64,000 nt of DNA. It comes from Podospora anserina (lineage: Eukaryota). Every line of letters begins with the position of its first letter. Positions within the stretch are counted from its first letter, which is position 1. Positions 58,900 through 64,000 of this stretch are shown here, in pieces. A model generated the notes under the pieces. That model worked only from the letters and a program-made list of their open reading frames with translations, did not search any database and was not told where the DNA came from. Both the position numbers and the translations under genes were made by a program. Location: NCBI GenBank assembly GCA_017654855.1, contig CM030332.1, positions 2,976,001 through 3,040,000 of the forward strand, read 5' to 3'.

Positions 58900-60726
58900 T
58901 GTTGGTGGTCTTGAGTCTCCGTATCGGTGACAGTTGCCTGGCTAAAAGTCTTTGTTGGTTGGAGGGTACAATTCTCTCTTGTGCTGGGGAATAATTTATA
59001 GGCGAGAAATGTATAGATTGCTCTATCTGCTCCGCCCGCAAGCCTGACAACAAAAGGTCACGAGAGTTGTCTCCGACAATTCACTGCTTCGTCTGGAGTC
59101 CTCCGCCATCTTGGATGCTCCAGATAAAGGGGAGGAAGTTGCTCTGAGCCATTGCTCATCCCGTCAGTTGCCGCCGGTCTAGAGAGAGCAAGAAGAATTG
59201 AAGCCTCCTGACGTCACGCAACGCTATCTTTGCTCCTGATCACAGCCGCGGTACCCATTTATTGGAAAGCGTGATACACAATGGTTTTGACTGTAATCTC
59301 CGTTATGCTCTTGTTGACAGCGGCTCAGGGGTTCAGATGAGAGCCACGAGAGGGTTTGATATGGGGCTGAGTCTATCGCACGGAGGATATGATGAGGTTG
59401 CTCCGGGAGCATCTCTTATCAATATTTTACTTATTTTGGGAGCTTGAGACTATCTACCCGTCTACCTTCAGCTGATGAGGCCCTACACATATGAATATCG
59501 AGGTGAATGTCAGAGGGGCAATGAGCGGTGTACCGTCACACACCGAGACCTTCCCGGATCCGAGAATAACCACGTCTCTTCACCTCAGTGAATCCCAAAA
59601 AGGAAGTTTTCATTTGTTCAAGTATATAACCACCGCTATTACCGCCAATATTGGCATGACTGTCCAATTGGGTAATAGTTGGGCGGTGAGATAGTGAGGG
59701 GGTGTCCGAGAAGGTAAGTGGAATGTCGTGGACCTGATGGAGGGGCTGGAGGGGAGATGGAGGGGAAACTTGGGCAGAAATCTCGATTTGATGCCGTGTT
59801 CATGCCTACATGTGCGATGGGAAAGACTGAGTGGTCCAGCGGACGTCTGAGAGCTGCAGTAGCCCAGAGACAGAGAGGGGTGAATGCTGCCCCACCGCCA
59901 ACTCAGCAGGAGCTTTGCTTCCAGCCCTCAAACCATGCCCGGTGGCCCGGGTACACCAAGTTTTGAAATCGGGTAGAAAACCTGCTTTTTCCCAGCCGTT
60001 GGGTTTTTGCATTTTCCTTTTCCTTTTCCTTCTCCAAACCCTTCAAGCCAGGCGGTCTATCAACTGTCTGCTTTGGATTGAAGGAGTAAACCCTTTCCGC
60101 GGCATCGTCGCCGAGTGGAAGTCCCCCACCAACGCTGGTCCGATTCGGCCCCGGCCACGGCTCCAATTAGCGGGCAGTGACCAGGGGTGCCGTTTCGTTT
60201 CCAGGCTCATTTCGGAAGGGCCGTCACCCAGCCCAGCGTCCACTATTGCCGATTTGACCCCCCCTTGGAAACGACGAGACGATAAGAAGGAGAAAAAAAG
60301 ATCTGACGACGACGACTTTGCAATTCGCAACACCATCACAACCTCCTTTACGAAGCATCGAGACGCTGTTGCCTTTGGCATTACGTGTTGACCGGTTCAG
60401 CCGTTCTTTCGGAGCTACCAAAGGTACGTAAGACGCCCATTGTCATTACCTACCAAATTTCCAAAGGGACCCCACAGCAGCAGAGGGATTGGATTCGCGC
60501 CCCCTTTCCACCGCCTGGGGCGTTCCCAGTTGTAGCGGCCCAACTTAGGTACTTATTGTATTTTTCAGCGATTAACTTTTATCGCGTTCTTGCCAGATCT
60601 CTCCAATCCCGCACCTCAGCCTGCAGCCTAGCAGCCGTCGTCAAGACACCACGCCTGCTGGTCGCATCTAATTTCTTCGCCTCCTCCCCTCTTCGCCGTG
60701 CTTGCAAAGCCACCAACACCGACAGC

Positions 60727-61254
60727 ATGTCCATCCAGGTTCCCATCGACCTGCTCACATCGCGCTTCAGCATGGGGGAGCGCTTCAGCAGCCTGCGCGC
60801 CAACACCATTGGCAACCGCTTTGCCAACCTCAAGCCCCTCTCCGAGTTCCTCGACATCAAGCGTGTGAACAAGCCCGAGAACTTTGTCGAGATGCAATCG
60901 CGTGTCAACTACAACCTCGGCCACTTCTCGAGCAACTATGCCATCGTCTTCCTGATGCTCTGCGTCTACGGCCTCCTCACCAAGCCCTTGGTCTTGTTCG
61001 ACATCATCTTTGTCACCGTGGGCATGTTCATCATTGGCAAGCTCGACGGTCAAGATCTCGAGTTTGGTACCCAGCGCTTCTCGACAATGCAACTTTATAC
61101 CGGCCTTTGGGTCATTGCGATCCCAATCGCCCTGATTTCCGGCGTCTTCGGCCTCATGATGTGGTTGATTGGCGCCAGTGGTGTGGTCATTCTTGGCCAC
61201 GCCGCACTTTTGGACAAGCCTATCGATGAGGCTTTTTCCGGGGAGGTGGTCTAG
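60727..61254 (+). CDS. YIP3: PRA1-family Rab-GDI displacement factor Yip3 (short form, 175 aa)
   Basis: LKPLSEFLD...RVNYNLGHFSSNY, hydrophobic hairpins, WLIGASGVVILGHAA...DEAFSGEVV*. Confidence 0.93.
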   Translation: MSIQVPIDLLTSRFSMGERFSSLRANTIGNRFANLKPLSEFLDIKRVNKPENFVEMQSRVNYNLGHFSSNYAIVFLMLCVYGLLTKPLVLFDIIFVTVGMFIIGKLDGQDLEFGTQRFSTMQLYTGLWVIAIPIALISGVFGLMMWLIGASGVVILGHAALLDKPIDEAFSGEVV

Positions 61255-62420
61255 GTGGTCGGCCACGAGCTCCCAAATTTTCGCCCCATGGGGGAAGACC
61301 ATCCAGGCGCGAGCGGAGGAAATATGAGGCGCGCCAGGGGGACGACAGCTGGTGGGGTGATGACCGGCGTGTCGAAGAAGTGGATGAATCTGATTCTGGT
61401 GTCGGGCTGGCCTCGAGCGCATTGGTCAGACGGGGTGGAAGCTTTGGTTCGGGCATGAATATCGTTGCTCGGGAGGACGGAGAGGAGACGACGGACGACT
61501 CGGAAGACGGGACGGATGATGACTATGACGATGACATGCCCATGCTCAGCCCGCGGGAGGAGGCTCTCGCCGAGGCTGCCATGGCACGTGTAGCGCGTGC
61601 CCATTCGAGAGGCAAGACGAATGTGAAGTTGGGCAAGGAGGAGTTGGCTGCCTATCAGAAGAAGCTGGCGATCATCGAGTACCAAAGGACGAGGCCACCA
61701 CGGAGAGAGCGTGTTGCTGTTCCCATCACTGCACTTGGACCTGCTGCCCGCAGCGCCAATCGACTGCCATCTGACGGCAGCACACCCCCTTCGGCCTCTT
61801 CGCCCGATCCAAACTCGGAAAGAGAACCAGCACAGCCACCAATGGGCTACTTTCCTCCTTCCTCTTCGCGCTCGTTTCCTCGTTCAGGCTCTAGTGCATC
61901 CAGGACACCTAGCCAGACCAGGGTTGACAGAGACCGGGACTTGTCGCCGTTCACGTATTCGTACATTCGCAAGGGCGATTCCGAGATTCGACCAAGCTCT
62001 CGGCAGCCCTCTGATTCTTCCGACCATCCAAGGGTCCCTCAACGCCGCAGCGAGTCTCAGGATCCTTTCCAGTACATGACGGACAAGCAGCCATCGCCTC
62101 TTTCAGGAGCCTCAGCCTCGTCGCGGACACTTCATCTTGATCCTTTGTCGGGAGCACCCTATTATGGATCTTCAACGGTTGTTCGCCGACGGACCGGCGG
62201 TCACGAAGACAGCGCCAGCGGCAGCGAGGACGCCTTTGACCCTGCGCCTCCTGGGCGGGTCAACAGCTCCGGCACCACCCGTCCTGACTCGAGGGGCGAT
62301 GACAAGTTGTCTCCTTCGGCCAAGAAGTCATCTTCTTCCAGTTCGGCTGTGCCTTCTCGCAAGAAGTCGGTTGCTACACGGACCAGCATCTTGGGTACTG
62401 CTAGAAGGAAAGCGAAATGA
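61230..62420 (+). CDS. YIP3: YIP3 -1 frame C-terminal extension (long form via programmed frameshift)
   Basis: Open from just after TGA 61227-61229 to 62420, with no ATG for the first 75 codons. Overlaps the YIP3 end across T TTT TCC (61233-61239). GFFRGGGLGGRPR..., acidic, helical and S/P/R-rich segments. Confidence 0.8.
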   Translation, partial: GFFRGGGLGGRPRAPKFSPHGGRPSRRERRKYEARQGDDSWWGDDRRVEEVDESDSGVGLASSALVRRGGSFGSGMNIVAREDGEETTDDSEDGTDDDYDDDMPMLSPREEALAEAAMARVARAHSRGKTNVKLGKEELAAYQKKLAIIEYQRTRPPRRERVAVPITALGPAARSANRLPSDGSTPPSASSPDPNSEREPAQPPMGYFPPSSSRSFPRSGSSASRTPSQTRVDRDRDLSPFTYSYIRKGDSEIRPSSRQPSDSSDHPRVPQRRSESQDPFQYMTDKQPSPLSGASASSRTLHLDPLSGAPYYGSSTVVRRRTGGHEDSASGSEDAFDPAPPGRVNSSGTTRPDSRGDDKLSPSAKKSSSSSSAVPSRKKSVATRTSILGTARRKAK

Positions 62421-62792
62421 TAAAGCCGAATGTGTCTCTGTTTTCTGTTTTTTTTTCTCTCTTTTCATTCTCCTCTCTGGGCAAAGTTTTGTGTGCGTGC
62501 GTGCGCGGCGGTCGGAGTCTATTTATCATCCTGGAGCAAACAGCGCGGATTTTGGGAAAAGAGGATCGGCTGGGATAACTATAGACTTGTGGGAATTTGA
62601 AATCAAATGAGTTTGTGTGAAGTTTTCTTGTTTGCAATATGTGCCCTTGCCATGTTTGATTGTCCTGACTTACAAATTCCACCGAGGTATACTTGACCAT
62701 TAACGCCCGTTGTTTAATAATATCCATCATGATACCTTTTCCCACGTACCATCATCATCATCGTCATCATTATCGATTGTCGTTTGTGTCAG

Positions 62793-63809
62793 TTAATCAG
62801 AAAAGAACTTTGTCACCCCCTTGACCATCCCATCCCCCCATCCACCACCACCCCCCAAGTCCCTAGTAAAACTCTCGGTCGTCTTCTCCCACGAACTCCC
62901 GTCGTAACCCCTCGTCGATCGTTCCACTGTTGATCTGGCCATTTTGACCGCCCCGGCGGCACCCCCAGCCGCCCCGGCGAGTTTGACTGCCTCGCCGACG
63001 AGTCCTACGCTGTCTCCTGATGCGGCTTTACCGGCCACCCCGATGAGCCGCTCGATTGCTTTGGGGAGACGGATCCCTACTTTTGCGAGGAGGGCGGTGA
63101 GGAACCCGCCGGTGAGGAGGGGCATGATGACTAGCATGAAGACCTTGAGGGGGTGGCGCTTTGCGTGGTTGAGAAGGTCGCGAAGGAGGCGGCGGATTTT
63201 TTTGTGGAGTTTGGTTAGGAGGTTGGGGCGGGGGGAGCGTTTATAGTAGGAGGAGGGGGTGCTTGGGCGGCCGCCTGGGGGGGGGGAGGGGAGGTTAGTA
63301 TGGGATATAAGGAAAGGGGGGGTTTAATGTGTGGGAGACGAACCAAACCCAGCAAAGAAGGAGGATCGGGATGCGTTGCCGCCTGCGAGGTTAAACAACG
63401 CGCGTGAGGCGTTGGATTGGGAGAAGAACGAACGGGAATCATCATCCACACTGCCCCTATGACGAGACCTCGACCGGGAACGGTTGCGCTGGGAGCGGGA
63501 GGGGGCGGGCTCATGGTCGCCGTAGATGAGGTCGTCGTCGTCTGAGGACGGGGAGGCGAAGAAGGAGGTTATACCCCCCATCACCGACCCGCTTTCCTCC
63601 CCCGCATGACGATGATGATGCTTCTTTGAAGAACGGCGCCTGCTCCGGGAGCGCTCCTCGCGATGATACTCCCGGGGAGAAGAGCGGTCCTTGGACCTCG
63701 AACGGTGGTGCTTCCTGCTGGAGCGGTGGTGGGATCGGTGGTGCCGTTTGGAGGTTGAGTGGGCTGTTCGACCCGAGATGACGGAGGAGGCGTCGTCTAG
63801 GAGGCCCAT
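62793..63809 (-). CDS. Hypothetical protein (R/S/H-rich N-terminus, hydrophobic C-terminal segment)
   Basis: One intron (~63275-63343) joins ORF 63324-63809 to SSYYKRSPRPNLLTKLHKKIRRLLRDLLNHAKRHPLKVFMLVIMPLLTGG... Confidence 0.75.
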
Positions 63810-64000
63810 TTTGACGATAGAGTCTTCTCAAGATGTGGTGGAGGTTCTCGCGAGAAACAGGGGACGCGTTCGTAGGGCTGATCAGCAAGGTCCCTTGAAA
63901 ATAATGGAGCTATCACCAAGAATAGCAGAGGCACCGCAAAATGCAGGTACGAGTTGCGTCAAACCAGACACTAAACCAATGCACGAAACAAAGATTGACA

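Follow-up and report, generated by a model that had tools for sequence, protein, structure and literature searches.

The YIP3/PRA1 locus of Podospora anserina and its published −1 frameshift: conservation of the shift site, its RNA structure and the C-terminal extension

Examining a 64,000-nucleotide stretch of the Podospora anserina genome (assembly GCA_017654855.1, contig CM030332.1, positions 2,976,001 to 3,040,000 of the forward strand; in the following the window, in whose own numbering all coordinates are given), we observed that its YIP3/PRA1 gene is the published PaYIP3 −1 frameshift locus of this fungus. The case is real, strongly conserved and not new, since gene, site, structure and conservation were described for this very same gene, Pa_1_8470, whose coding sequence was studied for −1 frameshifting (Malagnac et al. 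2013, PLoS One 8:e73772, PMC3777964). The mechanism is very probably the published one, namely −1 ribosomal frameshifting at U UUU UCC, promoted by a pseudoknot. The long form read from the window is identical in all 564 residues to the public PODANS_1_8470 of Podospora anserina S mat+ (P0068, titled 'LOW QUALITY PROTEIN: uncharacterized protein PODANS_1_8470'); it differs in three residues from the P. comata protein and in residue 170 only from the cluster representative P0003. The precedent, which an earlier note made from the sequence alone had named, is thereby confirmed. Long form, heptamer, masses, the 173-nucleotide intron, the bulged stem with its pseudoknot and the conservation in filamentous ascomycetes are all alike in the window and in PaYIP3 of Malagnac et al. 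(2013), and we found no difference between the two. To the published case we add RNA-derived contigs, 80 metagenome loci, pair counts, ratios of nonsynonymous to synonymous substitution (dN/dS) and a structure prediction for the tail. PaYIP3 is included in the review of Atkins et al. (2016), and in the literature searched no follow-up experimental study of the site is apparent beyond these two publications; judged by titles and abstract beginnings, neither PMC9104712 (yeast peroxisomal proteins), nor PMC9375231 (a review of phenotypic mutations), nor PMC13517186 (a review of viral stop-codon readthrough) appears to be one.

Read directly from the window sequence, the YIP3/PRA1 open reading frame (ORF; 60727-61254) begins with the start codon at 60727 and comprises 175 codons and a UAG; its 175-aa product matches the Pfam family PRA1 (PF03208) with an E value of 7.8e-37 and 126.5 bits against a cut-off of 30.1. 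Its 3' end reads GAT GAG GCT TTT TCC GGG GAG GTG GTC TAG, with the stop at 61252-61254. The −1 frame, shut by a TGA at 61227-61229, is then open for 396 codons (61230-62417) as far as the closing TGA at 62418-62420, and its first in-frame ATG stands at 61455. Zero and −1 frame share 22 nucleotides (nt; 61230-61251), inside which lies T TTT TCC (61233-61239), the Phe being codon 170 (residue 170 of P0002). These positions had all been read correctly by the earlier note, which had also seen that the heptamer breaks the X XXY YYZ rule. Assembled from zero-frame residues 1-170 and the −1 frame, the long form has 564 aa and a computed mass of 61.6 kDa, as compared to 175 aa and 19.5 kDa for the short form; both product sizes had been predicted rightly, whereas of the roughly 396 codons that the note had fused to YIP3 only 394 are used past the shift. 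The features of the two frames are:

60727..61254, plus strand: YIP3/PRA1 ORF, short form (ORF reading, PF03208 match, mass)
61227..61229, plus strand: TGA shutting the −1 frame upstream, the 5' limit of the shift window (sequence)
61233..61239, plus strand: shift site U UUU UCC, Phe170-Ser171 in the zero frame (sequence, conservation, paper)
61236..62420, plus strand: extension in the −1 frame past the shift, 394 codons and UGA (ORF, homologues, dN/dS)
61455..61457, plus strand: first AUG of the −1 ORF, its position unconserved in relatives (relatives' ORFs)

This arrangement recurs in relatives. With the extension alone as the query, 60 of 8000 scored candidate proteins matched at E ≤ 1e-3, and every named one among these 60 is from a filamentous ascomycete. 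Orthologous DNA was taken from metagenome contigs only, which were scanned with the alignment of PRA1 and extension; 80 loci, anchored on the PRA1 stop, were kept. A −1 ORF across the PRA1 stop is present in 76 of them, complete in 61 (379-514 codons) and still open at the contig end in 15 (4-421 codons), while the remaining four (L019, L020, L021, L034) have neither and show the published +1 arrangement instead. In 43 of 77 rows (the 76 loci and the window) the frames overlap by 22 nt, in the others by more, and because 22 nt is the shortest overlap over all rows, the common shift window is the same 22 nt. The alignment of YIP3 3' ends, proposed in the note as a check on the conservation of TTTTCC, hairpin and −1 ORF, came out in favour of conservation, with the −1 ORF in these 76 of 80 loci and with the shift site and stem described next. 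It also agrees with the conservation across Pezizomycotina, with +1 variants in Capnodiales and Ophiostomatales, reported previously (PMC3777964).

For the RNA structure, the four +1-type loci and a shortened one (L064) were left out and duplicates collapsed, giving 52 distinct 90-nt aligned contexts. C UUU UUC does not vary in any of the 52, not even at the synonymous third base of the codon before; as the seventh base of the heptamer 44 have C, 4 U and 4 A, and the zero-frame stop, UAG in 45 and UAA in 7, always lies four codons past the Ser codon. Downstream, GTGGTC (61246-61251) pairs with GGCCAC (61261-61266) and GGGAG (61241-61245) with CTCCC (61270-61274), leaving a 3-nt bulge GAG at 61267-61269. 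RNAfold returns this bulged 11-bp stem for the window both as minimum-free-energy and as centroid structure, and RNAalifold, applied to the 52 sequences, recovers stem 1 and a small hairpin unprompted. A pseudoknot arises through pairing of 61297-61303 with the 9-nt loop, in which the UAG is located. The layout is that of an H-type pseudoknot with an 11-bp bulged stem 1, a first loop of 2-3 nt containing the stop, a stem 2 of 6-7 bp and a connecting loop of about 30 nt. The base of stem 1 lies 1-2 nt past the heptamer and the upper stem 6 nt past it, which reconciles the geometry of the earlier note with that of the 2013 paper (where the structure, given as a stem-loop or a pseudoknot, follows at 2 nt and stem 1 carries a conserved bulge of 3 nt; PMC3777964): the hairpin of the note and its GGGAG/CTCCC extension stand, and its 6-nt spacer applies to the upper stem only. 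The parts of the structure are:

61241..61251, plus strand: 5' strand of stem 1, GGGAG 61241-61245 lower and GUGGUC 61246-61251 upper (RNAfold, RNAalifold, pair counts)
61252..61260, plus strand: loop of stem 1, with UAG 61252-61254 and the 5' strand of pseudoknot stem 2, 61254-61260 (pair counts)
61261..61274, plus strand: 3' strand of stem 1, GGCCAC 61261-61266, bulge GAG 61267-61269 and CUCCC 61270-61274 (RNAfold, RNAalifold, pair counts)
61284..61294, plus strand: small invariant CCCC/GGGG hairpin in the long pseudoknot loop (RNAalifold; three of its pairs never vary and covariation is silent)
61297..61303, plus strand: 3' strand of pseudoknot stem 2, GACCAUC (pair counts)

With lower stem 1, upper stem 1, the pseudoknot stem (61254-61260 with 61297-61303) and the small CCC/GGG hairpin as the model, 98.4% of 1092 cells are paired, as compared to 29.8-68.8% when the partners are slid by 1-3 columns, and none of 500 shuffles reaches the observed pairing or covariation score. 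Helices 1-3 are paired to 96.9-100%, helix 3, the pseudoknot stem, to 97.5%. Change on both sides occurs in four pairs: 14-50 (GC 30, AU 14, unpaired 8), 20-38 (CG 51, UA 1), 21-37 (GC 50, AU 2) and 28-81 (GC 29, GU 15, AU 8); in the last of these the A of the loop always meets U (8 of 8) and the G meets C (29) or U (15). Judged from these alignments, conservation and covariation at the shift site are far beyond chance. Rfam covariance models searched over 61233-61303 gave no match at E ≤ 1, two weak snoRNA-like matches lying elsewhere only.

Selection on the cassette was followed through third-position identity in 57 distinct ungapped rows, ten loci with indels, introns or truncation being left out. 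In the zero frame it is 0.44-0.61 from −180 to −31, rises to 0.84 and 0.96 over the final 30 nt of the ORF and reaches 0.98 in the 15 nt that begin with the stop codon. Substitution rates between the window and the loci are saturated (dS above 1 or undefined), and dN/dS was therefore estimated, as the note had advised for the −1 ORF, from 15 closer, independent locus pairs. In the first 25 codons of the −1 ORF dS is 0-0.05 in 15 of 15 pairs, as against 0.09-1.05 in codons 26-100, where dN/dS of the extension is 0.05-0.36; beyond codon 100 dN/dS is 0.06-0.27 (14 pairs, dS being saturated in the fifteenth). Among 54 distinct complete ORFs the first Met of the −1 ORF falls anywhere from codon 16 to codon 218, and in four pairs without a Met before codon 100 (L006/L007, L002/L005, L028/L033, L040/L066) codons 26-100 still show dN/dS of 0.05-0.36. 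Purifying selection upstream of any AUG means that the region is translated, and favours entry by frameshifting over separate initiation. By this substitution pattern the tail is a protein under purifying selection.

Regarding the transcript, 23 of 24 listed sequence runs contain the window stretch, none of them recorded as RNA; over 60000-62900 we compared X2, X5 and X6 (transcriptome-sized, from three studies) and X18 (genome-sized). X2, X5 and X6 each yield one contig (2606, 2541 and 2555 nt), which skips 173 nt with GT..AG ends at 60424-60596, and since this joint is absent in the DNA-like X18, which keeps the 173 nt, we infer spliced RNA as the source of the three contigs. From 60595 onwards they continue unbroken as far as 62742 or 62808, with zero gaps, no further joint and no inserted or deleted letter; neither a splice nor an indel at the frame overlap was found in X2, X5, X6 or X18. 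The absence of an evident intron between the frames, which the note had seen and wished to have checked against splicing and sequencing indels, is thus borne out by contigs of three studies and by X18. The main mRNA, of about 2.55 kb and with its sole intron in the 5' untranslated region (UTR), covers both ORFs and is unspliced and unedited at their overlap. The 2013 paper likewise describes a 173-bp 5'UTR intron and 12 cDNAs that are collinear, unspliced and unedited at the site (PMC3777964). The untranslated parts of the transcript are:

60036..60423, plus strand: 5'UTR exon 1, start approximate (contig starts at 60036, 60059 and 60081, each contig reaching the splice donor)
60424..60596, plus strand: 5'UTR intron, 173 nt, GTACGT...CAG (skipped in X2, X5 and X6; length as in the published PaYIP3 intron)
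60597..60726, plus strand: 5'UTR part of exon 2 (the spliced 5'UTR of about 518 nt has no AUG)
62421..62808, plus strand: 3'UTR as far as the contigs reach (contig ends at 62742 in X5 and at 62808 in X2 and X6)

The conserved heptamer, the structure, the frame layout and the unspliced mRNA support the programmed −1 ribosomal frameshift of the note. In the mechanism that we favour, most ribosomes would terminate at UAG 61252-61254, having translated the PRA1/YIP3 ORF into the 19.5-kDa membrane protein, whereas a minority would slip back by one base at U UUU UCC (61233-61239), four codons before the UAG, and continue for 394 codons to the 61.6-kDa form. At the slip the P-site tRNA-Phe would re-pair from UUU to UUU; the A-site tRNA-Ser would re-pair from UCC to UUC by way of a middle G·U, or else the A site would be empty and UUC subsequently read as Phe. 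The slip would be promoted by the H-type pseudoknot beginning 1-2 nt past the heptamer, with its bulged stem 1 of 11 bp (5 + 6) and the stop-bearing loop paired with 61297-61303, and the added tail would be rich in Ser, Arg and Pro, mostly disordered, presumably cytosolic and furnished with one helical hairpin. We infer in this scheme which tRNAs slip, what the pseudoknot contributes, and how the tail is placed and what it does. The long protein in vivo and the shifting of about 1% are demonstrated in the 2013 paper only, where the GFP-tagged long form was seen by western blot (an 88-kDa fusion from the wild-type allele) and by microscopy, and where shifting measured with a yeast reporter was 1%, the out-of-frame control yielding 0.3% (PMC3777964). 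The same paper argues that the UCC A-site codon can re-pair on UUC only via the middle G·U, and its Discussion already holds, and leans towards, the idea of P-site slippage, which the note had put forward as well. The two routes differ in the junction peptide: the ...AFFR... named in the note fits P-site-only slippage and agrees with the public annotation, whereas tandem slippage would give ...AFSR....

Several points speak against this interpretation and should be set beside the evidence. The heptamer does not follow X XXY YYZ, and only 1-2 nt separate it from the full stem. Fourteen of the 21 modelled pairs never vary and are uninformative; covariation is carried by four pairs, of which 20-38 depends on the window alone and 21-37 on two sequences, pairs 14-50 and 27-82 are each broken in 8 of 52 sequences, and the covariation term of RNAalifold is only −0.42 kcal/mol. 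Further pair types number 7, as compared to a shuffle mean of 8.1, with 500 of 500 shuffles at least as high, and since the sequences are related and the structure was drawn from the window, both pairing controls are flattering. The fold energy of the cassette in the window is unremarkable (z +0.57 in RNAfold; 138 of 200 shuffles fold at least as well) and does not serve as evidence. The GC content of the extension (61305-62417) is flat over the codon positions, 0.59/0.60/0.60, versus 0.53/0.35/0.80 in PRA1. The RNA evidence consists of assembled contigs, which lose rare variants and speak for the major mRNA form only, and the RNA origin of the X2, X5 and X6 contigs is deduced from the spliced joint and not from the records. 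Lastly, the pseudoknot failed to stimulate the heptamer of infectious bronchitis virus (IBV), and the long form alone fails to complement, the short form alone being enough (PMC3777964).

The extension itself, 394 aa with a pI of 9.7, contains 16% Ser, 12% Arg and 10% Pro. Aligned with one another, 42 extensions display an invariant cassette-encoded start, an acidic stretch, a conserved helix region and a basic C-terminus, as well as conserved short motifs of the types PPMGYFPP, SPFTYSY and DPFQYMT; the first 23 −1-frame residues, which the cassette encodes, are nearly invariant. AlphaFold2, supplied with the family alignment, gives a mean predicted local distance difference test (pLDDT) of 50.8 and a predicted template modelling score (pTM) of 0.26, with 267 of 395 residues below 50. 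The sole confident fold is a helical hairpin (extension residues 107-125 and 135-153, pLDDT 92-97), where most of the residues that are invariant beyond the first 23 are found, and for which alone the model is usable; a two-helix fragment would match indiscriminately in a fold search:

61551..61691, plus strand: helical hairpin of the extension (AlphaFold2, alignment)

The usual topology of PRA1 proteins would place the tail on the cytosolic side, and it is presumably cytosolic and largely disordered, with a small folded module. The extension profile had no match at E ≤ 1 among PDB sequences, and the ESM Atlas gave clusters of the family itself only (scores 0.91 and 0.89), with no Pfam family. 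A relation to SVIP (small VCP/p97-interacting protein; PF15811) was considered and rejected: the match is confined to an Ala/Arg-rich helix (residues 96-136; E 0.0084, 16.7 bits, below the cut-off of 27) and is not common to the family, being present at E ≤ 0.1 in 1 of 42 members.

With respect to the function of this tail, it is possible, though on balance we doubt it, that the shift is real and that the tail is a mere disposal tag without an activity of its own, diverting some PRA1 to degradation. The 2013 paper found that the corrected long form gives a weak western-blot signal, is missing in the fruiting-body centrum and does not complement, and proposed a degradation signal (PMC3777964), and the predominance of residues below pLDDT 50 would fit as well. 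A pure degron, however, would not need some 400 residues kept at dN/dS 0.06-0.27, nor a confident and conserved helical hairpin and several short motifs across the subphylum. This question concerns function only and is compatible with the frameshift mechanism. Somewhat less likely still, and offered as speculation, is that the cassette would be a sequence-specific site for a trans-acting factor, an idea already raised in PMC3777964, which would set the ratio of long to short form by tissue, and that the conserved tail hairpin would equip the long form for a separate role at endoplasmic reticulum or Golgi membranes. We consider it because the near-invariance of the cassette across the subphylum exceeds what pairing and double coding need, including the unpaired 3-nt bulge and the run GGGGAAGACC.

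Turning to the shift itself, transcriptional slippage, in which RNA polymerase II would add one U in the T5 run 61233-61237 in a few transcripts and the long form with ...AFFR... would be translated in a single frame, is very improbable. A run of five U is short for this purpose, productive sites usually having 7 or more. The resulting protein would be the same as that of P-site slippage, the 12 published cDNAs are too few against a variant of a few percent, the contig evidence loses rare variants and the yeast reporter is blind to the distinction. Nevertheless, slippage of the polymerase leaves unexplained the conserved bulged stem and pseudoknot, the compensatory changes and the near-zero synonymous change downstream; no inserted letter is seen in X2, X5, X6 and X18; and moving a slippery sequence out of frame lowered the signal, that is, the effect depends on the ribosomal frame (PMC3777964).

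That the downstream ORF is translated separately and unfused to PRA1, whether initiation is at AUG 61455 or at a non-AUG codon or the message is an internal transcript, deserves even less credence. An in-frame AUG does exist at 61455, several public models call the extension alone (P0007, P0010, P0012), and in 18 of 54 distinct complete ORFs of relatives an AUG stands at extension codon 16-17, inside the long pseudoknot loop (loci L043, L056, L058, L063, L067 and L070-L079 among them), though not in the lineage of the window. Against this, the variable position of the first AUG speaks also to initiation at 61455, which the note had named as a refuting observation; the four pairs without an early AUG are under purifying selection in codons 26-100 all the same, the first 23 −1-frame residues are nearly invariant, the contigs represent one mRNA over both ORFs, and the 88-kDa GFP fusion fits PRA1 plus extension plus GFP (PMC3777964). 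Finally, a minor splice, RNA editing or an assembly indel joining the frames, as the introns in public models of relatives (P0004, P0005, P0006, P0008, P0017) might suggest, can practically be dismissed, for the junctions of these models are mutually incompatible and delete conserved residues, three RNA-derived contigs and one DNA-like contig match the window without joint or indel, 76 of the 80 independent metagenome loci have the two frames laid out likewise, and the 12 published cDNAs are collinear (PMC3777964).

Those public models merit attention in their own right. In relatives the extension is either called alone as a hypothetical protein (for example, P0007, P0010, P0012) or fused to PRA1, and in the fusion models (P0004, P0005, P0006, P0008, P0017) the mutually incompatible junctions remove 17-26 conserved residues; they look like work-arounds by software for the change of frame. 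Taken together with P0036 and P0043, these five models are the proteins we name for an invented junction or an extension-only call, and the public models of relatives are a systematic misannotation of a recoded gene.

The four +1-type loci, whose named relatives are Cladosporium, Zasmidium, Cercospora, Hortaea and similar genera, have UUUCU in place of UUUUU and carry directly after the PRA1 stop, within the loop of the structure, an insert of 50 or 56 nt. Both ORFs are common to the +1-frame YIP3 variants (Capnodiales, Ophiostomatales) and to the window, which is of the −1 type and without an insert after the stop. The inserts are:

L019:3023-3072, L020:2932-2981, L021:3023-3072 and L034:543-598: intron-like inserts of the +1-type loci, with the canonical signals GTGAGT, then CTGAC or CTAAC, then YAG

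When the insert is removed, the upper stem and the pseudoknot stem are restored and an extension of 475-478 codons lies in the +1 frame. Unspliced, L019 would remain in frame 0 for 493 codons, but L020, L021 and L034 meet stops after 2-7 codons. The text of PMC3777964 mentions an intron in the 5'UTR only and calls the pseudoknot unconserved in Capnodiales.

Some further observations concern the transcript and its surroundings. The spliced 5'UTR (60036-60726 minus 60424-60596) contains no ATG where about 5.6 would be expected, and only 8 of 2000 shuffles have none, which suggests selection against upstream ORFs. The window has T at 60673 in the 5'UTR, while all four runs, including the DNA-like X18, have C; it is the sole difference from the window and is a strain difference or an error of the window. 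Past 62808 the X2 contig continues with 29 letters identical to 63345-63373, skipping 536 nt without canonical splice ends on either strand, and the X6 contig stops at the same base, 62808; the jump from 62808 to 63345 may be a chimera with the transcript of the convergent neighbour. On that side two adjacent minus-strand frames, 62796-63323 (176 codons) and 63327-63827 (167 codons), both rich in Ser, Arg and His, point towards the 3' end of YIP3. Neither matches a Pfam family, minus-strand contigs begin at 62842 and 62849, and by eye there seems to be an intron-like stretch between the two frames.

Recoding signals of the coronavirus (IBV) type combine a heptamer X XXY YYZ, a spacer of 5-9 nt and an H-type pseudoknot. 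The PaYIP3 site resembles them in the −1 direction, the U-rich site and an H-type pseudoknot with a G+C-rich stem 1 of 11 bp, a stem 2 of 6-7 bp and a loop of about 30 nt; it has a pseudoknot with covariation, most pairs being invariant, and neither an X XXY YYZ heptamer nor a spacer of 5-9 nt. It is further distinguished by the 1-2-nt spacer, the bulge in stem 1 and the zero-frame stop in the loop. Moreover, it shifts at about 1% in yeast, its knot is idle on the IBV heptamer, and it belongs to a cellular gene without viral ancestry, the paper having noted no retroviral signature in PaYIP3 (PMC3777964). The mammalian PEG10/Edr and PNMA/Ma3 are likewise cellular genes lengthened by a −1 shift, and the Edr pseudoknot also has a 3-nt bulge (PMC3777964); unlike PaYIP3, they are derived from retroelements and have canonical heptamers.

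PaYIP3 is therefore of interest in three respects. It is among the very few cellular −1 frameshifts of eukaryotes without a retroelement origin, and has persisted over hundreds of millions of years. It is a model for non-canonical shift sites, with a short spacer, a bulged stem and the stop codon within the loop. And it is a recurring annotation trap in this family, in which public models of relatives either span the two frames by means of invented introns or cut the gene in two.

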